A stretch of DNA of 64,000 nucleotides from Alphaproteobacteria bacterium (GCA_965219135.1 CBDCMV010000002.1:737092-801091); one strand, 5' to 3'; shown: positions 19,845-56,219, counted from the first letter of the stretch. Program-made: numbers and translations. Notes: generated by a model from the letters alone, not told the origin.

Positions 19845-21131
19845 GGGCACCTCTAAGAATTCTCCTTTTTCGGGCGTCGTCGATTTAGAATCGGGTTGCC
19901 GATTTGTTGATAGCGGGAGGCGTGGTTGATGGGTCAGATGGGGTTTTTCGATCTTGGGAACCGGTATTCCGGTCTTGACGCCAAGAACGAGCCGCTTTTG
20001 AAGATCGACGGGGTGGTTCCGTGGGAAGACTTGCGCGCGCGTCTTGAGGCGGTGTGGCGGCGTGCGGACAAGGCGCGTAAATCGCGGGCGGGACGCAAGC
20101 CGTGGGATGCGATTGTGATGTTCAAGACGATCATTCTGTGCGCGCTCTACAATCTCTCGGACGACCAAGTTGAGCATCAGATCCGTGACCGCCTGTCGTT
20201 CATGCGATTTCTGGGGTTGGGTCTGGAGGGCCGGGTTCCCGACGCCAAGACGGTGTGGCTGTACCGCGAACAGTTAACGCAAGCTGGCGTGATCGAGGCC
20301 TTATTCGAGACGTTCGATGGCTACCTGAAGGATCAGGGCTATCTGGCGATGGGCGGCCAGATCATCGACGCCTCGATTGTGGCGGTACCCAAACAGCGCA
20401 ACAGCCGCGAGGAGAACGCGCGGATAAAGGCGGGCGAGACGCCGGCAGGCTGGGAGGACAAGCCGGCAAAGCGGCGCCAAAAGGATGTCGAGGCGCGGTG
20501 GACTAAGAAGCACGGCAAGAGCCATTACGGTTACAAGAACCATGTCAACGTGGACCGTCGGCACAAGCTGGTGCGGCGCTATCATGTGAGCGACGCGGCG
20601 GAGCACGACAGCCAAGTCCTCGACGATATCCTGGATGGGGACAACACGGCTTTGGGTGTGTGGGCGGACAGCGCTTACCGCTCGGCGGAGATCGAGGCGG
20701 TGCTGAAGGAGAAGGGGTTGCGGAGCCGGATCCATCGCAAGGGCCGCCGCAACAAGCCGCTGAGCGAGCGCGAGAAGCAGGGCAACAAGACCCGTTCGTC
20801 GGTTCGGGTCCGCGTCGAGCATGTCTTCGGGGCCCAGAGCAACGACATGGGCGGGACGCTGGTGCGTAGTGTCGGGCTGGTGCGGGCGAAGGCGCGGATC
20901 GGGTTGAAGAACCTCGCCTACAACATGCGCCGCCTGGTCCAACTGGAGCGTCTCGCGGCGGCCGTGTGACGATACTCGGAGAAGGAGACCGCCTGGGGAC
21001 GGTCTTGTGGCGGAAATAACTCAATTGGAGCGTGGAAGACCCCGAAAATCTCGGCTCCGGCATGGCTGGAGCTGGTGACAGCCTGGTTAAACAATATCCT
21101 CCGACAACTCACCAATTCTTAGAGGTGCCCC
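19845..21131 (+). mobile_element. IS5-family insertion sequence (about 1.29 kb) with 16-17-bp terminal inverted repeats and a 5-6-bp target-site duplication
   Basis: IRL GGGCACCTCTAAGAATT at 19845-19861 and IRR AATTCTTAGAGGTGCCC(C) at 21114-21131. Flanking direct repeat CCAATG/CAATG on both sides. Single DDE transposase ORF inside. Confidence 0.8.
19926..20969 (+). CDS. IS5-family DDE transposase
   Basis: 347 aa (TTG start) with the typical IS5/IS1031-group sequence (...IIDASIVAVPKQRNSREEN...WADSAYRSAEIEAVL...). Confidence 0.9.
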   Translation: MMGQMGFFDLGNRYSGLDAKNEPLLKIDGVVPWEDLRARLEAVWRRADKARKSRAGRKPWDAIVMFKTIILCALYNLSDDQVEHQIRDRLSFMRFLGLGLEGRVPDAKTVWLYREQLTQAGVIEALFETFDGYLKDQGYLAMGGQIIDASIVAVPKQRNSREENARIKAGETPAGWEDKPAKRRQKDVEARWTKKHGKSHYGYKNHVNVDRRHKLVRRYHVSDAAEHDSQVLDDILDGDNTALGVWADSAYRSAEIEAVLKEKGLRSRIHRKGRRNKPLSEREKQGNKTRSSVRVRVEHVFGAQSNDMGGTLVRSVGLVRAKARIGLKNLAYNMRRLVQLERLAAAV

Positions 21132-21504
21132 AATGTTATCGATGGACAGACGTGCCTTTCAACGTAGGCGATCAAACTGGTGGCCACCGACCGCACATTC
21201 GTCTCGACGTCGGGCTCGGTGCATCGGCCCGCCTCGTCGAATGCGCTTTGGACGCCGGGGACCGACACCCCGCCGGGAAGGCGCCCGCAACCCGTTCGCG
21301 CAGCGCCCGCATGGGCTGCGAATCGGCGCCGCTGCCCGGAAGCGGCAGGTCCACGTCCCCGGGGTCGAATTCGTGGACCGAGAAGCGACCGTGGTTGATG
21401 ACCTCGTCGATCGCCAGCGCCAGCGCTTTGGCGGTGTAGTTGCCGGGACGGGCGGTGCCCAATATGGCCACGATACTCGGGCCATCGTTTCCTCGATCGC
21501 TCAT
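21132..21504 (-). pseudogene. NADPH-dependent FMN reductase-family gene, frameshifted (about 21285) and truncated at its 3' end by the IS5 insertion; the last about 19 codons lie left of the IS (19787-19844)
   Basis: N-terminus MSDRGNDGPSIVAILGTARPGNYTAKALALA...MRALRERVAGA is a flavodoxin-like FMN_red fold. A probable continuation (...VSVPGVQSAFDEAG...) is in another frame and runs into the IRR. Joining the flanks after removing the IS and one copy of the duplicated CAATG extends the ORF (...CPSITLEEMMRRGPALHWEPSAQEAV*). Confidence 0.5.
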
Positions 21505-21507
21505 CGG

Positions 21508-21918
21508 TTAGTCCTCCGTTGCCGCCGGTGATTCGACCGGCCAGTGATCTGCCACGCGTACCGCTTCGGTCGCGCCCGGCCACGGCGGCATCGTGACGAG
21601 CACGAAGACCAAGGGCTCTACCCCGGCGCGGAACTGAAACTCAGTACCAAGCGGAATCGTCAGCCCCATGCCGGGGCCGACCTCGACGACTTCTTGGCGA
21701 CCGTCGCGCTTGCGCCACACCTCTCCTTGGCCCGAGACGACGTACCAGATTTCTTCGACACTTCGATGAATCACGGCCTTCGACGTGTCTCCGGCGGGCA
21801 GGGTGCAGTGGGCCATGCTGCCGCCGGCGAGGACCGGCAAGACGCGGATCTCGGATCCGTCCGGCGCCAGCGCGTCATAGTCGGCGCCGACGCGGATCGT
21901 GGCGAAGTGCTCGCCCAT
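21508..21918 (-). CDS. Cupin-domain protein
   Basis: 136 aa with a cupin_2 beta-barrel signature (...GEVWRKRDGRQEVVEVGPGMGLTIPLGTEFQFRA...). Confidence 0.65.
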   Translation of the reverse strand: MGEHFATIRVGADYDALAPDGSEIRVLPVLAGGSMAHCTLPAGDTSKAVIHRSVEEIWYVVSGQGEVWRKRDGRQEVVEVGPGMGLTIPLGTEFQFRAGVEPLVFVLVTMPPWPGATEAVRVADHWPVESPAATED

Positions 21919-21924
21919 CGGGTG

Positions 21925-22374
21925 CTAGCGGCGCCTGGAAATGCGTGTGTGCAGGGCGCGCAGGTATTTGCGGTCGGCCTCGTCGAGTTCGCCCTCGGCG
22001 ATATCCTCTTTGTAGCCCTTGAGTTCTTCCCGTGTTGCCTCCCCAAGCTGACGTCGCGCCAGCATCTTCTCGATCATCGCCAGGGGCTCTGCGTCGCGGG
22101 CATCGCGGACCTTGCCCGTAAGCGCCTCGGCGTCGATCTCGACCTCGGGCTCCGCCTCCGCCTCGTCCTCGTCAACGTCGTCGTCAACGTCGTCGTCGAC
22201 GTCCTCGAACGCCGGCTCCTCGGCATCCTCGGGCGTGAGCAACGCGTCCCAGCCCAAGCCCGATTCGCTGACCTCCTTTTGAAGCGTCCGAGCCGCTTCG
22301 AGGACATCGGCGTCGTCTTCGCTGCCCAAGCGATCGAGTAGTTCAATGATTCGCTCGCGGTTTAGTTCCGGCAT
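21925..22374 (-). CDS. Hypothetical acidic protein (Asp/Glu-rich central tract)
   Basis: 149 aa from the internal ATG (MPELNRERIIELLDRLG...DVDDDVDDDVDEDEAE...). I recognise no domain. Confidence 0.45.
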   Translation of the reverse strand: MPELNRERIIELLDRLGSEDDADVLEAARTLQKEVSESGLGWDALLTPEDAEEPAFEDVDDDVDDDVDEDEAEAEPEVEIDAEALTGKVRDARDAEPLAMIEKMLARRQLGEATREELKGYKEDIAEGELDEADRKYLRALHTRISRRR

Positions 22375-22438: not shown

Positions 22439-23596
22439 TCAAAAGAACACCTCGATCCGGCTGAAGAGAATATGTTCGCCGTCGCCGTACTCGCTCGCCG
22501 GGTCGCCGGCGAAGAACTGCAGCGCGAAAACCGCCTCGATCTCCTCCGCCGCTGACCAGGTGAGCGAGGGCGCCAGGGCATAGGAGTGTTTCTCGAAGTC
22601 CGCGAGTACCAATCCGTCGATCCGCCACAGCGGTGTCGCATCGATGCCGGCCGCGAATCCGGCGAAATGCCGACGTCGGGTCTCCAGCCGATCCGAAGGG
22701 ATCGCCGACGGCGCCGAGCCGTCCGCGGCGCCGTTGTAGAAATATTCGAACAGCAAATAAAGCCCGTTTGGAAACGCGCCGTTGGTCAGGGTGAAGTCGT
22801 AGCCTCCGGAGATTTGCTGGAAATCGCGGCCCGTGTCGGGCCAGCTCTGCGCCATTTCAAGCCGCGCGCCCCCGCCATAGAGGTTCGTCGTCAGGTCGAC
22901 GCCGATGAGGTCTTCATCGCCGATGCGCCCGGCCAACAACGCATAGTCGGTCTCGGCGATGGTGTCGCGCCAGCGAAGCGCCACCTTGCGGGTCACGTTG
23001 CGCTCGCCTCGGCCCGGCCCGGCCACCAGCTCCAGCGCGGCGAACGGCGGCACACGGAAGGAAACCGCGCCAGCATCGACGCCAATCTTCTCGGCCGGTT
23101 CCAGGGCCAATGGCGCGACTGGATTGAAGCGGTCGGTCGGGTTCCATATCCGCCCCGAACCCCAGGCGACGCGCTGGCGCCCCAGGCGCACCACGCCGCC
23201 GCCCCAGTCAAACGACGCGATCGCGCGGTAGAGCCGATGCCGCCACCGATGCGAGCCGCCCTCGGCGATCGCGCCCTCGAGGTCGAGGCGGGTCGGCTCG
23301 GGGATCGCCGCGAGTGCGGCAAAGTCGGGGCTTTCCACCAGCCCTCCGGCCAGGACCTCGTGGTCGTAGACGGCGAACCACGAGAGATCGCCGAATTCGA
23401 ACGCGCCGGCAGCGCCTAGCGTTCCCCGCGTGGTCAGCCGCAACCGCGCAAGGTTGGTCAGGATGACGTCGTCGCCGGAATCGCGTGTGCGGAAGGTGAG
23501 GTTGGTCGCGTTGGCGCTTACCTCGTCCAACACATCGGCCGCCGCTCCTCCGGTGGCGAGCAGCGCTCCCGCCAGGAACAGCGCGTGCGACTTCAC
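22439..23596 (-). CDS. Putative outer-membrane beta-barrel protein (signal peptide, C-terminal aromatic residue)
   Basis: GTG start overlapping the upstream ATPase stop (GTGA). Leader KSHALFLAGALLATGGAAA. Alternating beta-strand pattern and terminal ...FSRIEVFF*. Last gene of the LolA-like/FtsX operon. Confidence 0.55.
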   Translation of the reverse strand: MKSHALFLAGALLATGGAAADVLDEVSANATNLTFRTRDSGDDVILTNLARLRLTTRGTLGAAGAFEFGDLSWFAVYDHEVLAGGLVESPDFAALAAIPEPTRLDLEGAIAEGGSHRWRHRLYRAIASFDWGGGVVRLGRQRVAWGSGRIWNPTDRFNPVAPLALEPAEKIGVDAGAVSFRVPPFAALELVAGPGRGERNVTRKVALRWRDTIAETDYALLAGRIGDEDLIGVDLTTNLYGGGARLEMAQSWPDTGRDFQQISGGYDFTLTNGAFPNGLYLLFEYFYNGAADGSAPSAIPSDRLETRRRHFAGFAAGIDATPLWRIDGLVLADFEKHSYALAPSLTWSAAEEIEAVFALQFFAGDPASEYGDGEHILFSRIEVFF

Positions 23597-24279
23597 GCGT
23601 GGGATTTGCCGTTCACGACCTTGCCGTCGTCCATGCGGATCAGCGGGCGCGCCCGCGCAATCACCATCGGATCGTGCGAGGCGAGCACGAACGTCGTGCC
23701 CCGGTCGCGGCACAGGTCGGCCATCAGGTCGATCAGCTGCTCGCCGGTCGCCGAATCGAGGTTTGCCGTCGGCTCGTCGGCAAGCACCAGGTCGGGTTCG
23801 GTGGCCAGGGCGCGTGCCACCGCCACTCGTTGTTGTTGGCCGCCCGAGAGCTGGTCGGGGCGACGTTCCCCCAGGCCGGATAGTCCGACGGCCGCCAACA
23901 GCGCGTCGGCGCGGGCGCCGCGCTCACTCCCGCTCATCCCCTGAAGCTCCAATACGTAGGCGACGTTCTCGCGCGCCGAGAGCACGCGGATCAGGTTGTA
24001 GGCCTGGAAGACGAAGCCGACGTGGCGCAGTCTGAAGCCCGCCCGCTGGTCCTTGCCGAGCTTCAGATAGTTCTCGCCGCCGATGCGCACCACCCCGGCA
24101 TCGGGCACATCGAGCGCACCCAGCATGTTGAGAAGCGTCGTTTTCCCCGAGCCCGAGCGGCCGGCAAGGACGGCGAACTCGCCGGCCTCCAGTGAAAGAT
24201 CGACGCCGTCCAGCGCCCGCACCTCGACCTCGCCGCTGCGGTATACCTTGTGAAGGGCCTCGGCCTCGATCAATGCCAT
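23593..24279 (-). CDS. ABC transporter ATP-binding protein (LolD/MacB/FtsE-like)
   Basis: 228 aa from the internal ATG. Walker A GRSGSGKTT, signature LSGGQQQRVAVARAL, Walker B LVLADEPT. Confidence 0.85.
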   Translation of the reverse strand: MALIEAEALHKVYRSGEVEVRALDGVDLSLEAGEFAVLAGRSGSGKTTLLNMLGALDVPDAGVVRIGGENYLKLGKDQRAGFRLRHVGFVFQAYNLIRVLSARENVAYVLELQGMSGSERGARADALLAAVGLSGLGERRPDQLSGGQQQRVAVARALATEPDLVLADEPTANLDSATGEQLIDLMADLCRDRGTTFVLASHDPMVIARARPLIRMDDGKVVNGKSHA

Positions 24280-24296
24280 TGCTCGACGGTCCTCCC

Positions 24297-25547
24297 TCAG
24301 ATCTGGCGCATCGCCTCGACGGGATTGAGCCGTGCCGCCCGCAGCGCCGGGTAAATGCCCGCCAGCACGGCGGTGATCGCCATGGTCACGAGTATCATGA
24401 TGATCGAATCGGCCGCCAGGACCGGCCGCATGACCGAGTCCATGTAAAAGAGCGAGGTGGCCTCGGCGAAGTTCGACAGGTCGATCCCTACCCGGCCCCA
24501 GTACAACGTCGCAGCGACGCCAAGAAGGCAGCCCGCACTGCCGCCGATGGCGACCAGGACGATTCCCTCCCACAGCACCATGGCGAACAGCTGGATGCGC
24601 CGCGTTCCCAACGCGTCCATCAGCCCGAATTCCCGTACCCGTTCGTAGAACGACATCAGCATCGTGTTGATGATCTGGGCCAGGACCACCGATATGACGA
24701 CCCCCAGCACGATCACGGTGCTGGCTCCCGAGAGCTCTAGGGTCTGCTGGACGAAGGGGTCGAGATCGTACCAGCGCATCACCTCATAAGACTCTGGGTC
24801 GAGGCGCGCGGAAAGGCCGGCGGCGATGGCCTCGGTCCGCTCGTGGTCGTGGGCGCGGATCACGACGTCGGTGAGGCCGGCGCCGATGCCGAGCCACGAT
24901 TGCGCGCTCCCCAGCGGGATGATTGCCGTGAACTGATCGATCTCGGGGACGCCGGCGCGCAACGTACCGCGCATCAGAAAAGCCTCGGACGCGATATCGC
25001 CCTCCGGCGACTGCGTCATCAGCACCACCTTCTCGCCCAGCCGCACCCCAAGATTCTCGGCCAGCGTGCCGCCCAAAAGCAGGCCGCGCGAATCGTCGGG
25101 CTCGAGCCACGCACCCTCGGCGACGAACTGCGCCAGCCGCGTTACCGCCGGCTCGGCCTTCACGTCAACGCCCATGATGATCGCTGCGGTCGAGGCGCTG
25201 GCGACGCTGGCGAGCCCGGGCATGCGGACCCGCCGCGTCCAGGCGCGTACGTCGCCATTCTCGGCCACCGCCGTGGTTACCGGGCCGGGCTCAGGGATAC
25301 GGTCCTGGATCTGCAGGCTCTCCTCGAAGCCCGCGCCGTGCACCTGGACGTGCGCGGTCGAGGTCAACACGAAGTTCTCGCGCATGCTGGTCAGCCAGCC
25401 CTCCTGGATGCCCATGAGGAAGGTCAACGCCCCGATACCGACGACCAGCGAGCCCAGCGTGAGCCCGGTGCGCCAGCGGTGGCGGGCCAGGTTGCGCAGG
25501 CCGATCGCGAGGTAGGTTCTGGGTGAGAGCCCGGCCCGGTCAGACAT
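24297..25547 (-). CDS. ABC transporter permease, FtsX/MacB/LolC-E-like (4 TM, large periplasmic loop)
   Basis: About 416 aa from the internal ATG (MSDRAGLSPRTYLAIGLRNLARHRWRT...). C-terminal FtsX domain. Confidence 0.8.
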   Translation of the reverse strand: MSDRAGLSPRTYLAIGLRNLARHRWRTGLTLGSLVVGIGALTFLMGIQEGWLTSMRENFVLTSTAHVQVHGAGFEESLQIQDRIPEPGPVTTAVAENGDVRAWTRRVRMPGLASVASASTAAIIMGVDVKAEPAVTRLAQFVAEGAWLEPDDSRGLLLGGTLAENLGVRLGEKVVLMTQSPEGDIASEAFLMRGTLRAGVPEIDQFTAIIPLGSAQSWLGIGAGLTDVVIRAHDHERTEAIAAGLSARLDPESYEVMRWYDLDPFVQQTLELSGASTVIVLGVVISVVLAQIINTMLMSFYERVREFGLMDALGTRRIQLFAMVLWEGIVLVAIGGSAGCLLGVAATLYWGRVGIDLSNFAEATSLFYMDSVMRPVLAADSIIMILVTMAITAVLAGIYPALRAARLNPVEAMRQI

Positions 25548-26763
25548 GGGCGATCGCCTCGACCGGCTCCAGCCGCATGGCGCGGAAGGCGGGATAGAGC
25601 GAGCTGACCACGCTCGCGCCAAACAGGCTCAGGACGGTGACCAGCAGGTGGTCGGTATCGATCTCGGTGCGAATCACCGGATCGAAGTAGAACCGCTGGA
25701 AGCTCTCGGCCATGTCGGAAAGGTCAATCCCCACCCATCCGAAATAGCTCACGCCGCCTAAGCCGATCAGCGTACCCGCCGCGGTGCCCATCAGCCCCAC
25801 GATCAACGATTCCGTGACCACCATCGCGCCGATCTCGATACGACGGGTCCCGAGCGCCATCAGAATCCCGAACTCGCGGGTACGCTGGATCATCGAAACC
25901 AGGACCGTATTGACCACGCCGGCGACGACGATCACCAGGACGATGCCGAGGAAGAAGTAATTAAAGCCGTTGTCGAGCGCGATCCCCTCTTCGAACCAGG
26001 GAAACATGTCCGACCAGCGCAGAACTTCGAGCGTACCATCGCCGAGGTCGGCGCGCAGGCGGGCGGTCACGGCATCGAGTTCGCGCGGCTCGATCCGGGC
26101 GACGACTTCGGTTACCCGGTTTTCCATACTCAGGATCGTCTGCACCGTCTGAAGCGGCACGATCGCGATCCCCCGCTCGGCGTCCTCTCCCGCGTCGCCC
26201 AGGATTCCGATCAACGTCAAGCGATCAGCGGCAAGCCCGCCAAACCGGTCCTGGCCCACGACGACGAAGGTTTCGCCCAGCTCGACTTCGAGGCGGCGGG
26301 CGGCGCCGGCGCCCAGCAGTCCCACCAGGCCATCGCCGGCGGCGATGAAGCGACCCTCTTCCACGCGCCCGGCCAAGCCGGTGACGTCGCGCTCGCGATC
26401 GGGCTCCATGCCGACCAAAAGCACGCCCGAGGAGGTCTCCTCGCCGGCCGCCAGGACGAAGCTCGATAGCCTTCGCGACCAGCGCTCGACGCCGGCGCCT
26501 TGCAGCGCGGCCAGGATCGGCGCCGTGTCCTCGATATGGGATTCGAGCCGAGGACGGCGGAAGTATCCGTCCCGGTGCACCTGCAGGCTGCCGACGAAGG
26601 CATCCTGGAAGTTGCGGGTCATGCCGTTGTGGCCGCCATCGTTGAAGCCCCACAGAAAGAGAAGCGCGGTCAGGCCGATGGCGAACGCGGCTGACGTAAT
26701 GATGCTGCGGCGCCAGTTGCGGGCGACGTTGCGCCAGGCGATGGCAAGCACCAGTCCGCTCAC
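25540..26763 (-). CDS. ABC transporter permease, FtsX/MacB/LolC-E-like (second copy)
   Basis: GTG start overlapping the LolA-like stop (GTGA). VSGLVLAIAWRNVARNWRRS... with a C-terminal FtsX domain. The 8-nt overlap ATGTCTGA couples it to the next permease. Confidence 0.8.
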   Translation of the reverse strand: MSGLVLAIAWRNVARNWRRSIITSAAFAIGLTALLFLWGFNDGGHNGMTRNFQDAFVGSLQVHRDGYFRRPRLESHIEDTAPILAALQGAGVERWSRRLSSFVLAAGEETSSGVLLVGMEPDRERDVTGLAGRVEEGRFIAAGDGLVGLLGAGAARRLEVELGETFVVVGQDRFGGLAADRLTLIGILGDAGEDAERGIAIVPLQTVQTILSMENRVTEVVARIEPRELDAVTARLRADLGDGTLEVLRWSDMFPWFEEGIALDNGFNYFFLGIVLVIVVAGVVNTVLVSMIQRTREFGILMALGTRRIEIGAMVVTESLIVGLMGTAAGTLIGLGGVSYFGWVGIDLSDMAESFQRFYFDPVIRTEIDTDHLLVTVLSLFGASVVSSLYPAFRAMRLEPVEAIAHV

Positions 26764-27548
26764 CGCTCGCCCCGCGACAGGTTGGCGCGCTGGAAGGTCC
26801 GCTCGGCGATGGGGACGTCGAACTCTGCCTCTTCGATAACCAACACCGTCCGGGTCTCGGGCGCGTCCAGGGGTACGATCGTCCACTGGGTCGGCGTGCG
26901 GCGCCCGCCCAATGTCCCCACCTTCTCGAAGACCAGCCGGCGGACCGCGCTGCCGCGTTCGTCGAAGAACACCTGGTCGAGCGGCATCCCGTCGGGTCGC
27001 AGGCGCAGGACCAGCTTGCCCCACACCACCGGCGCTTCGGGCTTGGGCAGCGATTCGACGGTGATGATGCTTGCCTCGCCCTCGCCCTCGCGGTCGATGA
27101 TGCGGTGGGTGTAGTCCTCGACGGTCGAGGATTGCTTGACCAGATCGTCGTTGGTGAAATCCGAGCCCATCCACGAGTTCAACATCATCGAGGGCGGCAG
27201 TTTGATGTCGCGCTCCAGCTTGGGCAGGTACATCCACATGTTTCCGCCGACCTTGAGAAAGGTCGTGTCCTTGTCCTTCTTGGGCGCCAGGAGCCGGATG
27301 AAGAAGCGATCGCTGGTGCGGTCGTCCCAGTATTTCATGCGTATAACCCGGCTCCAGCTCGGGCGGATCACCTCGACACGGTAGACGCCGACGCTCGAAT
27401 TGGAGCGCAGCACTTCCTCGAGCATGCGCACCAAGGCCTCGGCTTCCGGATCCGCCGCCGCCTCCGCGCCAGCCAAGACAATCGCAAAAAGGCCCAGGAC
27501 GGCGGCAGTTCCCAGCCGCGCCATACGTGCTCTCGACACCGTGGTCAT
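26760..27548 (-). CDS. Outer-membrane lipoprotein-sorting (LolA-like) periplasmic protein
   Basis: 262 aa from the internal ATG. Signal peptide MTTVSRARMARLGTAAVLGLFAIVLAGAEAAA. LolA-like beta-barrel family sequence (…WDDRTSDRFFIRLLAPKKDKDTTFLKVGGNMWMYLPKL…). Confidence 0.7.
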   Translation of the reverse strand: MTTVSRARMARLGTAAVLGLFAIVLAGAEAAADPEAEALVRMLEEVLRSNSSVGVYRVEVIRPSWSRVIRMKYWDDRTSDRFFIRLLAPKKDKDTTFLKVGGNMWMYLPKLERDIKLPPSMMLNSWMGSDFTNDDLVKQSSTVEDYTHRIIDREGEGEASIITVESLPKPEAPVVWGKLVLRLRPDGMPLDQVFFDERGSAVRRLVFEKVGTLGGRRTPTQWTIVPLDAPETRTVLVIEEAEFDVPIAERTFQRANLSRGER

Positions 27549-28150
27549 GAACGTTGCCTCGCGTTCTCGAGTACCGCGGCGAAGGCGTCCGCGGCCACCG
27601 GCCATGCCTTGCGAAAGCGCGCGTTGTCGCACACTAGCAAGGCGTGAAGGCTCATGCCGTCCAACAAGGCGGCCACCGAGGTTGCCAGGGCATCGAGGTG
27701 GGCACGGGGAAGCGCATCGCCACCGTGCGCCGCCAGGCCCGCGCGAACCTCGTCCAGCGCGTGCAAGTACGTTCTGGCCGCCGCTTCTCGGTACCCCTCG
27801 TTGAAGAATGCTTCGGCGAGATACGCGTTCAGCGCCTTCATCAGCTCGGCGTTCTCCTCCATGAGCCTCAAGCTCGCCCGGCCCAGCGCACGCAGGTAGC
27901 CGCGCGCGTCTTTGTACGCCTTGGGATCTACGCTCTCGGTCAGATCGGTGGCCAAGAGTTCCGTGGCGGCGAGCGGAATCGCGTCCAGGGTGGCGAAGTG
28001 GTGAAACAGCGTTCCCTTGCTCACCCCGGCGAGTTCGGCAACGGCGCGCGCGGTAAGGCCGCGGCGGCCGCGTTCCCCCAGAATCTGTAGGCTGGCCTCG
28101 AGGATACGCCGGCGCGTCGTCGCTCCCCGATCGCGTGAGCGCCCGCCACG
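27545..28150 (-). pseudogene. TetR-family transcriptional regulator with an apparent N-terminal frameshift (HTH region and start codon in different frames)
   Basis: Track ORF begins inside the HTH (MSKGTLFHHF). Upstream in the same frame reads ...RDRGATTRRRILEASLQILGERGRGRLTARAVAELAGV with no start codon before an in-frame stop. An ATG (MTAAVTPRRR...) is present only in the +1 frame (28021..28218). Stop overlaps the LolA-like start. Confidence 0.55.
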
Positions 28151-28274
28151 GGCCCGCGTCGGGCGCGGCGTGGCGGAGAGATTCGACTCCGCCGTCTCGG
28201 CGTCACGGCAGCCGTCATGGTTCCTATATAAGATTGACCGACCGGTCGGTCAATGGAGGGCCCGCGGCCACGCC

Positions 28275-30039
28275 TTACTCCGTGGCGCCGGCCTTGCGCA
28301 GACCTTCGAGGTAAAGCGACAGATCATCGCGATCGCTGATCAGATGGGTTTCCCGCACGAAGCCCAGGCTGAAATCGGGGCGCAGGCGGTGCAGCTCGTC
28401 GAGTGCCTCGCGGGCCGAGTCGAGCCGCCCCAAGTGGCCGAGCGCCGAGATCGTCACGGCATGTCGCGACCACTGAAAACCCGATTGGCGAAGCGCTTTC
28501 TGCGCCCACATCAGCGAATCCTCGTAACGCCCCATTAACAGGCTGGCATCGGCAAGCCGCACCAGGAACGAGCCCATGGCAGGATCGTGCGGGCTGAGAC
28601 GGATCGCCATCTCGAGGTGCGCAAGCGATTCCTCGGCCCGTCCCGAAAAGACCAGCGCGGCGCCCAGCCCGTAGTGCGCCAGCGCCAGGCTAGGGTTGAG
28701 CGAGCTGGCGGTTTCGAGCTCGGGTATGGCGCGGTCGTGCTCGCGCCTCAGGTAATGGACCCGACCCAGCGTGCAATGCGCCGCGGCGTCTTCGCCGTCG
28801 AGCTCGACCGCGCGCCGTGCCGAGACAAGCGCGCGTTCCCAGCACTCGGCCTGGGACTCTGCGTGGCCGTACAACCGCGTAGTAGTTGGCTTCCGCCAAG
28901 CCGGCGTGGGCGAGGCCGAGGTTGAGGTCGATGTCCGCAGCCTGCTGAAACAGCCGGCGCGCCTGCGAGATGTCGTCTTTGGTGTATCGATACAGGTGCC
29001 ACAGGCCGCGCTGGTAAGCCTCCCAAGCGCCCATGTCGTCGGTCCTCTGCGCTCGCGCGCGCCGCCGTTCGGCCTTGCCCATTTCCGGGTCGATCTCGCC
29101 GACGATGGCCTCGGTGATCTCGTCCTGTACCGCGAACACGTCCTCCAACTCGCGGTCGTAGCGCTTGGCCCACACATGATTCCCGGTCCCGCCCTCGACG
29201 AGCTGGGAGGCGATGCGGACACGCTTTTCGGCCTTGCGGACGCTGCCCTCGAGCACATAGCGCAGGCCCAGATCGCGTGCCACCTCTCGCACGTCCGCGC
29301 TCCGGCCCTTGTAGGCGAACGACGAGTTCCGGGCGATCACGAAGAACCAGTGCACCCTGGAAAGCGCGGTGATGATCTCTTCGGTAATCCCGTCCGCGAA
29401 GTATTCCTGTTCGGCGTCGCCGCTCATGTTGTCGAACGGCAGCACCGCGATGGAAGGTTTCTCGGGAAGCGGCGGCGGCTCGACAGGGGCCTGGTGCGCG
29501 GCCTGCGCATCGGGCGCCCAGCGCCAGATTCGAATGGGCCGCGCGACGTTCTTGACCTGTTGTGCCCCGCCGTCCGCGAAGCGAACGCTTGTCTTGCCTT
29601 CGAGTTGGTCATGCACGGTCGCTGAGATCGCGATCCCACCCGGTTCGGCGCATTCCTGGACGCGGGCCGCGAGGTTGACGCCATCCCCGTACACATCGTC
29701 GTCGTCGTCGACGATCACGTCTCCGAGGTTGACCCCGATGCGGAAGACAATCCGCCGGTCCTCCGCCACGTCGGCGTTTCGCGCGTGCATCGCCTCCTGC
29801 GCCTCGACGGCGCAGCGCACCGCGTCGACCACGCTCGCGAACTCGGCCAGCACGCCATCGCCGGTGGTCTTGAAGACCCGGCCGTGGTGATCGGCGACCT
29901 TGGGGTCGATGACCTCGGTGCGGTGGGATTTGAGGGCGGCCAAGGTCGCTTCCTCGTCGGCCGCCATGAGGCGGGTATAACCGGCCACGTCGGCGCTGAG
30001 GATCGCCGCGAGCCGGCGCTGTGTCGCGCCTGGGGCCAC
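28275..30039 (-). pseudogene. Class III adenylate/guanylate cyclase with C-terminal TPR domain, frameshifted at about 28865-28885
   Basis: 449-aa ORF: CHD cyclase domain (LAAILSADVAGYTRLM...FKTTGDGVLAEF...GVNLAARVQ) plus a TPR start (...GLAHAGLAEANYYAVV). The TPR continuation and conserved C-terminus (...ECWERALVSARRAVELD...YLEGLRKAGATE*) are in the overlapping 28275..29258 ORF. Confidence 0.7.
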
Positions 30040-30228: not shown

Positions 30229-31697
30229 GGAGCAAGTGCGTTGGCAGGCCAGCACCTGCCTCAGCACGTGGCCACCGTCCCCATCCGCTTGATGTTCAAC
30301 GCCAAGCACACGAGGTCCCACTCGCCGCGCACCTTCGCCAAGCCTCGCAGGCTGAATCGTCGGAATCCGAGCACCTCCTTGATCCACCCGTTCGGCGCCT
30401 CCGAGAGCCACTTGCGTTGCGCGTACCGGGCTTTGCCCGCGGGGCTCGCCAGTTTCTCACCCATGCGGTGCGTGGCAGGGAGCCGGGCCGGGTCGACCGC
30501 CACCTGGGACTTGCCTTCACGCCCCAGCGCTACGTGCGCGTCGATGCCGCGATCTTCCAGCTCCAACAGATCCGGCTCGTTGCAGTAGCCCGCATCGGCC
30601 AGTACCACCGCAGGCTCGACCCCAAACGTCTCGTTGATCTCGTCGAGCATCCCCACCAGCTGACCCTGGTCGCTGGCCTGTGGCCCCACCTGAGTCGCGA
30701 CGATGATCTGGTGCTCCCCATCGACCGCCATCTGCGCGTTGGAGCACTGCTGGAATCCCTCGCTGCTGGTCTTCATGATCTGGCTCTCGGGATCGGTGAA
30801 ATTGCTCTGCGCCTTCGGCTCGGGCTCGCCGTAGGCCCGCTTGTAGGGCCGCCCGCCCCGGGGATTGCGGTCCTGCCCAGGCTCGCGCCCGCGCTCATCG
30901 TCGCGCCCGCGTTGCGCCGCCTCCAAACGCGCTTTGGCTGCCTGGATCGCCGCCAGGCGCTTCTCCCTGCGTTGCAACTCCTCGGGCAACTCGTCGCCCC
31001 GGAAATCCTCGCCCCAACGCTCGTCTTCTTCGGCGTCCACCATCCCCGCCTTCGTCAGCAGCGCCTCGATCTCCGCCTGCAAGCGAGCCGCCTCTTTGCC
31101 CATCCGCTCATAGCTCATCGCCTTGCGCTTGCTCGCGTTCGCTCGCACCTTCGTCCCGTCGACCGAGAGCTTGCCGAACCGCGCCAGTCCCATCTCGCGC
31201 GCCACCTGCACCACCCCCACAAACAGCTCGCTGAACTCCGCCAGATGTCGGCGTCGGAACTCACATACCGTGCGATGTTGCGGGAAGTTGCCCGCCGCGA
31301 GCATCCGAAACGCTACTTCCTCCTCCAGCTTCCTCGCCACCGCGCGCGAGGAGAATGTGCCCGTCGCGTAGGCATAGATCAGCACCTTGACCATCATCGA
31401 CGGCTCGTAGGGGGCGTTGCGTCGACCGTCCCCCTCGTTGGGCGCATAGAACGCCGTCAAGTCCAGTGCATCGACCACATCGCTGACGTGATGAGCCAGG
31501 TGCCCTGGGGGAACCCACTCCTGCAAGTCCAGCGGCAAAAGCAAGGGTTGGTCCGGCTGGTAGGCACGAAACGTGGTCGGCATCTGGAGTTCCCATACGC
31601 AACTGGCGTATCGGATCATACTTCCCCCTGCGCAAATCCACCCACAACCCGTCCGCTATCAACTTTGCCGCGCGGACCTTTCTGCAGCGCACGCTCC
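30229..31697 (-). mobile_element. IS1182-family insertion sequence (about 1.47 kb); ends approximate (imperfect inverted repeats GGAGCaaGTGCGtTGgCAG / CTGCAGCGCACGCTCC)
   Basis: Single 440-aa transposase with 30-115 bp non-coding ends. Degenerate inverted repeats at 30229-30248 and 31682-31697. No clear target duplication. Confidence 0.45.
30261..31583 (-). CDS. IS1182-family transposase
   Basis: MPTTFRAYQPDQPLLLPLDLQEWVPPGHLAHHVSDVVDALDL... is the characteristic IS1182/IS5-superfamily N-terminus. DDE region ...VLADAGYCNEPDLLELEDRGIDAHVAL... Confidence 0.85.
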   Translation of the reverse strand: MPTTFRAYQPDQPLLLPLDLQEWVPPGHLAHHVSDVVDALDLTAFYAPNEGDGRRNAPYEPSMMVKVLIYAYATGTFSSRAVARKLEEEVAFRMLAAGNFPQHRTVCEFRRRHLAEFSELFVGVVQVAREMGLARFGKLSVDGTKVRANASKRKAMSYERMGKEAARLQAEIEALLTKAGMVDAEEDERWGEDFRGDELPEELQRREKRLAAIQAAKARLEAAQRGRDDERGREPGQDRNPRGGRPYKRAYGEPEPKAQSNFTDPESQIMKTSSEGFQQCSNAQMAVDGEHQIIVATQVGPQASDQGQLVGMLDEINETFGVEPAVVLADAGYCNEPDLLELEDRGIDAHVALGREGKSQVAVDPARLPATHRMGEKLASPAGKARYAQRKWLSEAPNGWIKEVLGFRRFSLRGLAKVRGEWDLVCLALNIKRMGTVATC

Positions 31698-32969: not shown

Positions 32970-34387
32970 TCAGTAGCTTGCACTCGCGGAGCGATGCCGG
33001 GTAGTGCCGTTCGGCGAATCGTACGCTTCGCAGGCGAATTCTGCGTGCCAGCCGGAGACGTTCCACATCTTGCCCACGGGCTTGAGGATGATCGCGACCC
33101 CCGTTCCGTGGGTTGCGCACTTATCCAGGCTAACATCGTAGCAAACCGCGAAGCGGAGATCGACGTAGCCGGGGCGGAACCACGTCTGGTCCGGCGACAG
33201 CCTCACGAGTCGGTTCTCGATGTCAGCAAGATGGCGGCCTTCGATTTCCAGCATGTCATAGGGTTGGTAGGTGTACACCCAGCTCGCGCCCTCGCCTTCG
33301 CCTCCGCTCCGCGGAATTCCTTTCCCTCCAGGCCGACCAGCTTGCACAGTGACGGCTGACGCCACACGAAGTACGCCTCCCACGTATCGAGCGCACACAG
33401 CGGGATTCGTGGATCGCCGATGCACGCGCTCGATGCCTCGCCGGTCGAGGCGATGGTCCGTATCTCCGCCGCGCCCGCTGCTGGGAAGCAAGCAACGAAA
33501 GAATCAGGCCCGCCCAGATCCGGAAGATCGAGCGCGGCAACTCGATCTGTGTCATCCGGTGTCTCATTCCATTCCCTACCGAGGCGGGCGCCTGACCTCG
33601 AACGGCCACGGCCACGAGAAGAGGTTGGTCGGATCGACCCGCGGGGACATATGGTGATAGTCGATCTTGGATTGCTCGTACGTTCTCGCCATGATCTGGT
33701 CCATGGTCGACAGCGGCTTGCCCGAGTTCCGCATCTCGAGTGAACGTGGTACGGATTGTCAGGGTAGCGTAGCGTGATGTCCTGCGCCACGCCGATCTGC
33801 GTCTCCCCCGCCCGTACGCGGTCGCCTAGCTTGACCGAAGGGTCGACGTAGTGGAGCCGTGTCACGTGGCCATCGGCGGTGGTGACATCGACGTAGTGGT
33901 AAGTGGGCTCTCCCGCGTTTTTCGCGCCCGGGTACGGCCGGCCGACCATCGTTACGACGCCGTCGACGGTGCTCACCACCGGAGTCCCGGGCGTCGCCTC
34001 GAAATCGATTCCGTTGTGCAACCGCGCGCCGCCATCTCTCGAGGCGTTGAACCAGCGGCCGCCCGCCACATCGGGAGCAATCCGACCGCTCGGTGTTGGA
34101 GACGCGAGCTCTGGCCGCGGTCGGGAGTAACCCTCCCGCACCATGTGCGGCGGCGCCATTAGCGCGGTGTAGCCCGGCCCAAAGGGATTGACGGCATCGT
34201 ATCGCGCACCGCCCGAGCCACCGCTGAGCCGCCCGAACAAATACGGGTTCTCCGCCATGCCGAAGCGCCACGGCGGGTACCGGGTTCCGAACGATGACGT
34301 CGCCACGTCCGGCACGGCGCCGTCGCGTCCCCGTGGCGGCCAGGCCGTATGCCAAGCCTGGTGCTGATACCCGCTCGGCGCAGTCAC
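32970..34387 (-). pseudogene. M23-peptidase-domain protein (N-terminal LytM-like domain plus unknown C-terminal domain), apparently frameshifted at least once (about 33300; possibly also about 33740)
   Basis: 394-aa ORF contains HNGIDFEATPGTPVVSTVDGVVTMVG...GETQIGVAQDITLRYPDNPYHVH (M23 HxxxD/HxH). The distal part (...SWVYTYQPYDMLEIEGRHLADIENRLVRLSPDQTWFRPGYVDLRF...) is in the overlapping 32970..33491 ORF. The track ORF's Arg-rich middle looks like off-frame translation. Confidence 0.45.
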
Positions 34388-56142: not shown

Positions 56143-56219
56143 CGGAGTGTAGCTCAGCCTGGTAGAGCACCGTCTTCGGGAGGCGGGGGCCCGCGGTTCA
56201 AATCCGCGCACTCCGACCA
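56143..56219 (+). tRNA. tRNA-Pro (anticodon CGG)
   Basis: Cloverleaf: acceptor CGGAGTG/CACTCCG (7 bp), D-arm GCTC/GAGC, anticodon stem CCGTC/GGCGG with loop TTCGGGA (CGG, G37), T-arm CGCGG-TTCAAAT-CCGCG, encoded CCA. Confidence 0.85.

Follow-up and report, generated by a model that had tools for sequence, protein, structure and literature searches.

A largely open question in envelope biology is how hydrophobic molecules other than lipopolysaccharide and lipoproteins cross the periplasm. An operon within 64,000 nucleotides of alphaproteobacterial DNA (Alphaproteobacteria bacterium, GCA_965219135.1 CBDCMV010000002.1:737092-801091; this whole stretch is called the window, and positions are counted from its first letter) bears on this question. 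ORF and frame analysis delimited six open reading frames (ORFs) on its minus strand at 22439-28218, encoding a TetR-type regulator, a LolA-like carrier, two FtsX-type permeases, an ATP-binding cassette (ABC) ATPase and an outer-membrane beta-barrel. What does this combination of proteins do? With moderate confidence, we read the locus as a trans-envelope exporter of hydrophobic or amphiphilic cargo, in which an ABC transporter would hand its cargo to the carrier and the carrier would hand it to the barrel, under control of TetR. Complex formation, the direction of transport and the class of cargo are what we infer here.

Conservation of the gene set

Relatives of the barrel protein are encoded at no fewer than 498 genome loci (i.e., at least this number), and the best 80 of these were examined. 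At 59 loci, 4.6 kb or more of sequence 5' of the barrel gene allowed an evaluation; genes for a LolA-like protein, an FtsX permease and an ATPase lie directly upstream of the barrel gene and on the same strand at 57 of these 59. Three gene orders occur (L, LolA-like; X, FtsX; A, ATPase; B, barrel): L-X-X-A-B at 31 loci of Alpha- and Zetaproteobacteria, L-A-X-X-B at 23 loci of Beta- and some Gammaproteobacteria, where the double FtsX is often fused, and L-X-A-B, with a single FtsX, at 3 loci. A preliminary description of this DNA, made by a model from the sequence alone, had made co-conservation of the neighbourhood a test of its operon, and the genes are indeed co-conserved across four proteobacterial classes. 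The barrel family itself is large, with 155 matches in a word-indexed search and 4129 representatives of 50%-identity clusters in a profile search (E<=1e-3). The much more distant barrel relatives P0319 and P0370 are found in the same cassette, and the distant relative P0285 is paired with a PF17131 LolA_like gene beside polyketide synthase genes.

All-against-all clustering of the flanking ORFs yielded no further widely conserved neighbour family. The five transport genes therefore form an independent unit with a long history of joint inheritance; TetR is found with the cassette only in the closest relatives (loci L003-L005). The barrel-carrier pair also occurs outside the cassette: at L086 (5636-7933) the gene for a 474-aa protein distantly related to the barrel and a gene of PF17131 adjoin polyketide synthase/acyl carrier protein genes and a sigma-54 activator, with no FtsX genes in view, so that the pair is also recruited to a setting of lipid or polyketide biosynthesis.

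Several neighbours are restricted to single lineages, among them leuA in Mariprofundaceae and a gene for a UbiB-type kinase in Ralstonia; we drew no conclusion on the substrate from any of these neighbours. Just 3' of the cassette at L014 (11312-12752), and at about 8-10 other loci of Mariprofundaceae, lie psd and a gene for a PssA-like cytidine diphosphate-alcohol phosphatidyltransferase; this lineage-restricted synteny is at best a weak hint of a link to phospholipids. A gene for a protein binding cyclic nucleotide monophosphates occurs on the opposite strand near the cassette at 17 loci (Mariprofundaceae). The cassette of some Burkholderiales has an additional gene between those for the LolA-like protein and the ATPase; at L066 (3256-5685) it codes for a phosphoketolase-like (XFP/XFP_N) protein of 809 aa and an FtsH gene lies directly upstream, and the same XFP-like insertion is present at L064, L067, L073, L079, L081 and L083-L085. 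A gene for a 126-aa SirB-family membrane protein lies between the ATPase and barrel genes at L017 (6261-6641) and at six other zetaproteobacterial loci.

The genes of the window are packed closely (Table 1). The preliminary description had all six genes overlapping, which is correct for four of the five junctions, i.e., tetR/lolA-like (ATGA), lolA-like/ftsX1 (GTGA), ftsX1/ftsX2 (ATGTCTGA) and ATPase/barrel (GTGA), and incorrect for ftsX2/ATPase, where a 17-nt gap contains a GGAGG located 8-12 nt 5' of the ATPase ATG. Its operon also ended at 28150, about 100 nt short, since the ancestral tetR start lies at 28218 and a palindrome upstream of it extends to 28253. An independent gene caller applied to L001, a metagenome contig 99.8% identical to the window, returned identical gene models except for an FtsX1 start four codons later. 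Short overlaps are frequent in high-GC operons and, consequently, it is the conservation of the gene set, not the overlaps, that constitutes the non-chance signal.

Table 1. Operon genes, candidate control sites and the adjoining downstream gene (window coordinates).
Feature	Position	Strand	Description
LolA-like carrier gene	26760..27548	-	262 aa; PF17131 LolA_like / TP_0789-like
FtsX1 permease gene	25540..26763	-	407 aa; 4 transmembrane helices and MacB-type periplasmic domain
FtsX2 permease gene	24297..25547	-	416 aa; paralogue of FtsX1
ABC ATPase gene	23593..24279	-	228 aa; LolD/DevA/MacB nucleotide-binding domain type
Barrel gene	22439..23596	-	385 aa; 18-strand outer-membrane beta-barrel (model)
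tetR coding frame	27545..28192	-	first usable start GTG 28024, giving 159 aa
tetR 5' remnant ORF	28021..28218	-	65 codons from the ancestral ATG, not in the helix-turn-helix frame
Palindrome TTGACCGACCGGTCGGTCAA	28234..28253	none	perfect, 20 bp; candidate TetR operator
Promoter-like TTGACC-17 nt-TATATA	28225..28253	-	read by eye from the sequence; overlapped by the palindrome
Acidic protein gene	21925..22374	-	149 aa; 64 nt 3' of the barrel gene

A terminator scan of the gap 3' of the barrel gene called no terminator-like site, and the small gene that follows is possibly co-transcribed. Its product is very acidic, with runs of D/E, and has no Pfam matches; it occupies the same position only in the close relatives L003-L005 and is outside the conserved module. 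A cupin gene (21508..21918) comes 6 nt after it.

Pump, carrier and barrel

The identities that the preliminary description had assigned, i.e., a TetR regulator, a secreted protein of LolA fold, two MacB/LolCE-type FtsX permeases, a LolD/MacB-type ATPase and an outer-membrane beta-barrel ending in EVFF, were all recovered by the domain and structure searches. Both permeases match PF12704 MacB_PCD (E ~1.5e-12) and PF02687 FtsX (E 1e-20 and 6e-16), share 35% identity as paralogues and carry four hydrophobic segments each at the expected positions. Among solved structures, LolF, LolE and LolC are closest to them (FtsX2 to LolF/LolE, E ~2e-17), and they are presumed, by analogy with LolC/LolE, to form a heterodimer. 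On the lolCE hidden Markov model (HMM) TIGR02212, however, FtsX1 scores 89.6 bits and FtsX2 124.3 bits against a cut-off of 362.45, and both are likewise far below the cut-offs of the NCBIfam models for LolC and LolE. The ATPase matches PF00005 ABC_tran (E 4.6e-32), and its motifs, as read from the sequence, are intact (Walker A GSGKT, Q-loop, LSGGQ, Walker B DEPT and H-loop SHD). Its best NCBIfam match is LolD (TIGR02211), at 206.6 bits against a cut-off of 307.75; the models for DevA, MacB, YbbA and FtsE score it similarly. The architecture of the permeases and the motifs of the ATPase are both those of type VII ABC transporters (MacB/LolCDE/FtsEX fold).

The carrier matches PF17131 LolA_like (Pfam, E 1.7e-43); neither the LolA family proper in Pfam nor any NCBIfam model was matched. 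With a hydrophobic, signal-like segment at its N-terminus (residues 9-32) and no Cys, it should be a soluble periplasmic protein and not a lipoprotein. Its sequence matches in the PDB are 9tp6 (LolA3), the best, 4z48, 3bk5 and 3buu. The AlphaFold2 (AF2) model (predicted local distance difference test score, pLDDT, 80.3; 11-12 strands plus helices) matches these same four structures in Foldseek at E 1e-14 to 1e-12 and template modelling (TM) scores of ~0.6, with 4z48, deposited as a member of the DUF1329 family, as the best structural match. Matches to canonical LolA and LolB are weaker (TM 0.25-0.36 for the LolA structures). The carrier thus has the fold of the LolA-like superfamily (PF17131 / DUF1329 / LolA / LolB) and does not belong to the LolA family proper, that of the lipoprotein carrier. 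Its nearest solved homologue, LolA3 of P. gingivalis, has a hydrophobic groove and is devoid of the Arg that LolA conserves in its beta2-beta3 loop and of the Leu of LolB (PMC13103446). The best-conserved part of the carrier, residues 105-141 (window 27126-27236; WMYLPKLERDIKLPPSMMLNSWMGSDFTNDDLVK), has many invariant columns and could serve as a mobile lid or as a loop that binds a partner.

For the barrel protein of the window no Pfam or NCBIfam model was matched. It starts with a hydrophobic signal segment, contains no Cys and would, therefore, not be lipid-anchored, and ends in ...IEVFF. Its model (pLDDT 90.5) is an 18-strand barrel of the OprD/AlgE/Wzi class, so that the protein combines the signal peptide, the closed barrel of even strand number and the C-terminal aromatic beta-signal of outer-membrane beta-barrels. 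Occ/OprD uptake channels and chitoporin are its best structural matches. The best-conserved segment, GRQRxAWGSGRIWNPTDRFNP (residues 139-159), sits in a long, confidently modelled, non-regular stretch between two strands; counting strands in the model places it in what would be extracellular loop 3. In classical porins the loop at this position is the constriction loop. Matches to PF06980 (DUF1302) occur for 19 of 64 members of the barrel family, all below the cut-off (best E 2e-4), with none for the window protein, which suggests that the family is a distant relative, and not a member, of DUF1302.

Type VII ABC transporters work by mechanotransmission, from the periplasmic side. In the exporter that we favour, the two permeases of FtsX/MacB type would join a pair of ATPase subunits in a LolCDE-like transporter of this type, whose ATP-driven movement of the periplasmic domains would pull cargo out of the inner membrane (outer leaflet) or the periplasm. 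The soluble LolA-like protein would then take over the cargo, shield it across the periplasm and deliver it to the dedicated barrel, which would insert or release it at the outer membrane. The locus holds no gene for a membrane fusion protein, which makes the carrier route likelier than a TolC-type duct.

A number of points weigh against such an export relay. The barrel is as close to the Occ uptake channels as to the export channels AlgE and Wzi, and residues 105-141 of the carrier are modelled by AF2 with low confidence (pLDDT <50 for 112-139). LolA3 of P. gingivalis has no assigned function and does not pair with LolB (PMC13103446), and deletion of lolA3 in F. johnsoniae gave no phenotype (PMC11885536). 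The cassette has no constant companion among biosynthetic or catabolic genes, so that the class of cargo cannot be inferred from the context. Finally, P. putida requires genes of the DUF1302 and DUF1329 families to grow on Tween 20 and butyl stearate, and for these genes a role in uptake or hydrolysis is also possible (10.1101/2020.07.04.188060).

Some of this evidence would equally fit uptake of hydrophobic nutrients, whereby the barrel would admit a compound, the LolA-like protein ferry it inward and the ABC transporter insert or import it. The Occ/OprD and chitoporin matches of the barrel and the growth defects of the P. putida mutants point in this direction, as does the induction on n-C28 alkane of a fusion of MMPL and LolA-like domains and an adjacent porin-like protein in T. 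oleivorans (PMC6304351). We nevertheless judge uptake improbable, also because the module has no linked catabolic genes. Type VII (MacB/LolCDE-fold) ABC transporters are, to our knowledge, solely exporters or extractors, and we know of no importer among them. Local TetR-type repressors with palindromic operators are, moreover, typical of efflux operons. Efflux is also what the data on AmeABCD of Castellaniella defragrans indicate; this system consists of a DUF1302 barrel, a DUF1329 protein of the LolA superfamily, a BNR protein and a resistance-nodulation-division (RND) pump of the HAE3 type, and cells from which it was deleted tolerate monoterpenes less well and accumulate more Nile Red (PMC6394551).

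A LolCDE-like extractor here shares a single operon with a dedicated carrier and a dedicated barrel, and the cassette is conserved in hundreds of proteobacterial species. It is therefore a small candidate, accessible to genetics, for a route across the envelope that relies on a carrier, with culturable hosts in Ralstonia, Ideonella, Piscinibacter and Mariprofundus. It also gives a function-linked context to a barrel family that lacks a Pfam model and to PF17131 proteins of the 'LolA3' type, one of which had its structure determined in 2026 (9tp6) with no role assigned to it. For this genome alone, the finding is modest. One could go further and speculate, although we think it unlikely, that the cassette is an unrecognised, widespread route by which an endogenous lipid or a lipophilic component of the envelope reaches the outer membrane from the inner one, in parallel with Lpt, Lol and Mla. 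It would then be a Lol-like relay with a barrel as insertase, and the barrel family would represent a novel type of lipid gate in the outer membrane.

The repressor gene and its surroundings

The tetR frame was identified by matches to PF00440 TetR_N (E 1e-10; residues 30-68 of the extended frame) and PF13977 TetR_C_6 (E 3.6e-6). Upstream of the gene, TTGACCGACCGGTCGGTCAA occurs once in the window, with 0.01 chance matches expected; L003, L004 and L005, otherwise 70-90% identical at the level of protein, have the same first 18 bp. The promoter-like site that it overlaps ends 6 nt 5' of ATG 28218; a stricter scan for consensus sigma-70 promoters did not flag this site, the second hexamer of which is without T at position 6. 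The spacing suggests a leaderless, autoregulated transcript, and we infer from the sequence that TetR, where intact, binds the palindrome as its operator. In the exporter proposed here, this regulator would thus be a lineage-specific addition that blocks an overlapping promoter and that is frameshifted in the present genome.

The preliminary description had noted an N-terminal frameshift in tetR, and closer comparison upholds it. The ATG homologous to 28218 is in frame with a full-length TetR in L003 (~227 aa) and in L004/L005 (211 aa). In the window, this ATG opens another frame, the 65-codon remnant, which ends at a TGA overlapping GTG 28024 (GTGA). The helix-turn-helix (HTH) frame runs 5' to a stop codon with no ATG, GTG or TTG before GTG 28024. 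As this GTG marks the start of the recognition helix, the longest possible product lacks HTH helices 1-2. Non-canonical starts were considered and rejected, as inspection by eye found no in-frame CTG or ATT/ATC/ATA in the likely transcript. As it stands, this tetR does not, consequently, encode a repressor with HTH and ligand-binding domain on a single polypeptide; L003, L004 and L005 have intact copies of the gene. The shift maps to ~28135-28180, in an Arg/Pro-rich N-terminal tail of variable length.

The same frameshift is present in L001, although the two contigs differ by 25 single-nucleotide polymorphisms (SNPs) and 4 indels per 20 kb, and it is for this reason probably genuine relative to the three relatives. 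An assembly error, with the repressor intact in the organism, would be conceivable in view of the contigs, which look like ~10x-coverage metagenome assemblies, judged by the record name. One of the four indels between L001 and the window splits an insertion sequence (IS) transposase in L001, and the tetR shift itself sits in a GC-rich, low-complexity tail coding for Arg/Pro with runs of GGG/CCC. The sharing of one lesion by contigs 25 SNPs apart argues against such an error, as does the apparent decay of the neighbouring genes (a split cyclase/tetratricopeptide repeat (TPR) gene and an FMN reductase gene truncated next to an IS), which fits an eroding, IS-rich region. We regard an error as rather unlikely. 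With tetR frameshifted, the operon is probably constitutive, i.e., derepressed, in this genome, and the lineage-specific switch appears to have broken in a decaying neighbourhood rich in IS.

Upstream of tetR, the cyclase/TPR gene occupies 28275-30039 (minus strand), with a 449-aa Guanylate_cyc ORF at 28690..30039 and the TPR part in another frame ending at 28275. The two frames overlap by ~570 nt and the same split is found in L001; a single frameshift near 28800 thus seems to have broken the adenylate/guanylate cyclase-TPR gene in two. It is followed by the IS transposase at 30261..31619 (minus strand; DUF772, DDE_Tnp_1 and DDE_Tnp_1_6; 452 aa), which is the one split in L001, by a 1-nt insertion. 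This transposase and the cyclase gene separate dodecin from tetR, which are adjacent in L003-L005; a homologous IS lies downstream of the operon in L004/L005. On the other side, a second, IS5-like transposase (19926..20969, plus strand, 347 aa) adjoins an FMN_red fragment (21172-21504, minus strand) of 110 aa, compared with 211 aa for the syntenic gene in L003, and the FMN reductase gene appears truncated at the IS. An origin of the operon in a composite transposon was set aside, since the flanking IS differ in transposase type and length and the operon of the relatives lies in the same dodecin...CSD neighbourhood without these IS.

Farther away, the window is longer than L001 by ~97 bases at 33110-33207, where the BLAST alignment consists of two segments that overlap. 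The position is 5' of a Rieske gene and close to a Peptidase_M23 gene, and the difference resembles a tandem duplication or an indel polymorphism. Collinearity of the window with L001 ends at window 13243 and below (L001 20358-21158), a structural difference between strains or assemblies. A tRNA-Pro (CGG) at 56143-56219 (plus strand) is the sole tRNA and the sole Rfam match in the 64-kb window.

Comparison with known systems

The LolCDE transporter extracts lipoproteins and passes them on to LolA, which is recruited by the 'Hook' hairpin of LolC. The cassette resembles this system in having two paralogous FtsX permeases with four transmembrane segments, a separate LolD-like ATPase and a soluble carrier of LolA fold; homodimeric (single FtsX) and fused variants exist as well, as with LolF. 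A canonical LolCDE was, however, rejected, in line with the preliminary description, which had held that the locus is not a canonical lolCDE: the permeases and the ATPase score far below the lolCE, LolC, LolE and LolD equivalog cut-offs, and carrier and barrel are encoded in cis. The carrier belongs to PF17131 instead of the LolA family, and the LolA/LolB signature residues are missing from LolA3, its homologue of solved structure; the outer-membrane partner is an 18-strand barrel where Lol uses the lipoprotein LolB, and all parts are united in one operon, here together with a repressor.

The cassette could still be a specialised second Lol pathway, in which a subset of lipoproteins would be extracted, carried by the LolA-like protein and passed to a barrel that replaces LolB or flips them to the surface. 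Kinship of the permeases with LolF, LolE and LolC, LolD as the best NCBIfam match of the ATPase and the LolA/LolB fold of the carrier agree with this, and lipoproteins are among the candidate cargoes named for a related arrangement in Borrelia, BBJ23-BBJ29 (PMC13078400). We consider it distinctly improbable. All Lol equivalog HMM scores are far under their cut-offs and the conserved module contains no lipoprotein gene. The module also occurs in Betaproteobacteria (Ralstonia), which are expected to have canonical Lol too, since proteobacteria are commonly considered unable to live without it. Furthermore, the P. gingivalis LolA3, devoid of the LolA Arg and LolB Leu, does not bind LolB (PMC13103446), and deletion of lolA3 in F. 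johnsoniae spared lipoprotein-dependent gliding and type IX secretion (PMC11885536).

MacB expels periplasmic substrates through MacA-TolC. The cassette shares with MacAB-TolC a MacB_PCD plus FtsX permease and a MacB-like nucleotide-binding domain, but this domain is a separate polypeptide and a carrier and a non-TolC barrel take the place of MacA and TolC. A MacAB-TolC system was rejected because the Pfam search found no HlyD/MacA membrane fusion protein or TolC-family domain in the operon, and the barrel resembles 18-strand monomeric channels and not TolC. A resistance pump of the MacB/YbbAP/BceAB kind, directed against peptides, toxins or solvents and merely accompanied by the LolA-like protein and the barrel as accessories instead of relay parts, is suggested by the scores of ATPase and permeases on MacB and YbbA models, by the TetR repressor and by the monoterpene solvent tolerance that AmeABCD confers (PMC6394551). 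Yet the locus is without genes for a membrane fusion protein and TolC, and the strict co-conservation of carrier, barrel and pump argues for integral parts, so that we think it quite unlikely. This interpretation largely overlaps that of the exporter and differs from it solely in the cargo (xenobiotic vs. endogenous).

The arrangement has partial counterparts elsewhere. For the Borrelia cluster BBJ23-BBJ29 the same logic of pump, carrier and barrel was proposed computationally in 2026 (PMC13078400). Its barrel is, however, an Omp85 protein (BamA/TamA-like), its permease is homodimeric and extra chaperone-like genes are present; it is plasmid-borne in spirochaetes and, like the cassette, known from computation only. 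In Bacteroidota, PF17131 genes occur in TetR-controlled MMPL/ABC operons induced by iron limitation (PMC10434189). These operons (P. gingivalis PG1175-81 and Prevotella intermedia) share with the locus a TetR, a PF17131 'outer membrane lipoprotein-sorting protein' and inner-membrane transporters, next to hypothetical proteins, but they encode an MMPL family transporter and two ABC ATPases and respond strongly to iron limitation. A description of the ABC-type module was not found in the literature searched.

AmeABCD is the closest characterised analogue and the best experimental precedent. The DUF1302, DUF1329, BNR and RND families also cofit in Shewanella and Pseudomonas (10.1101/072470). Both AmeABCD and the cassette encode an inner-membrane pump together with a periplasmic protein of the LolA superfamily and a dedicated large barrel, and the likeness extends to the weak DUF1302 matches in the barrel family and to the DUF1329 label of the carrier's top structural match. 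They differ in the source of energy, an ATP-driven type VII ABC transporter as opposed to a proton-driven HAE3 RND/MMPL pump, and in size, with 385 aa for the barrel vs. ~600 aa for DUF1302 and 262 aa for the carrier vs. ~450 aa for DUF1329. An HAE3 RND/MMPL pump and a BNR (COG4447)/Ycf48-like propeller are absent among the six products and the conserved flanks. The locus, therefore, belongs to neither LolCDE, MacAB-TolC nor the Ame/DUF1302 cluster. The resemblance to poorly characterised envelope export modules that the preliminary description had seen is supported, and can be narrowed to an ABC-powered kind with pump, LolA-like carrier and dedicated barrel; by analogy, the cassette looks like the ATP-driven counterpart of an Ame-type machine.

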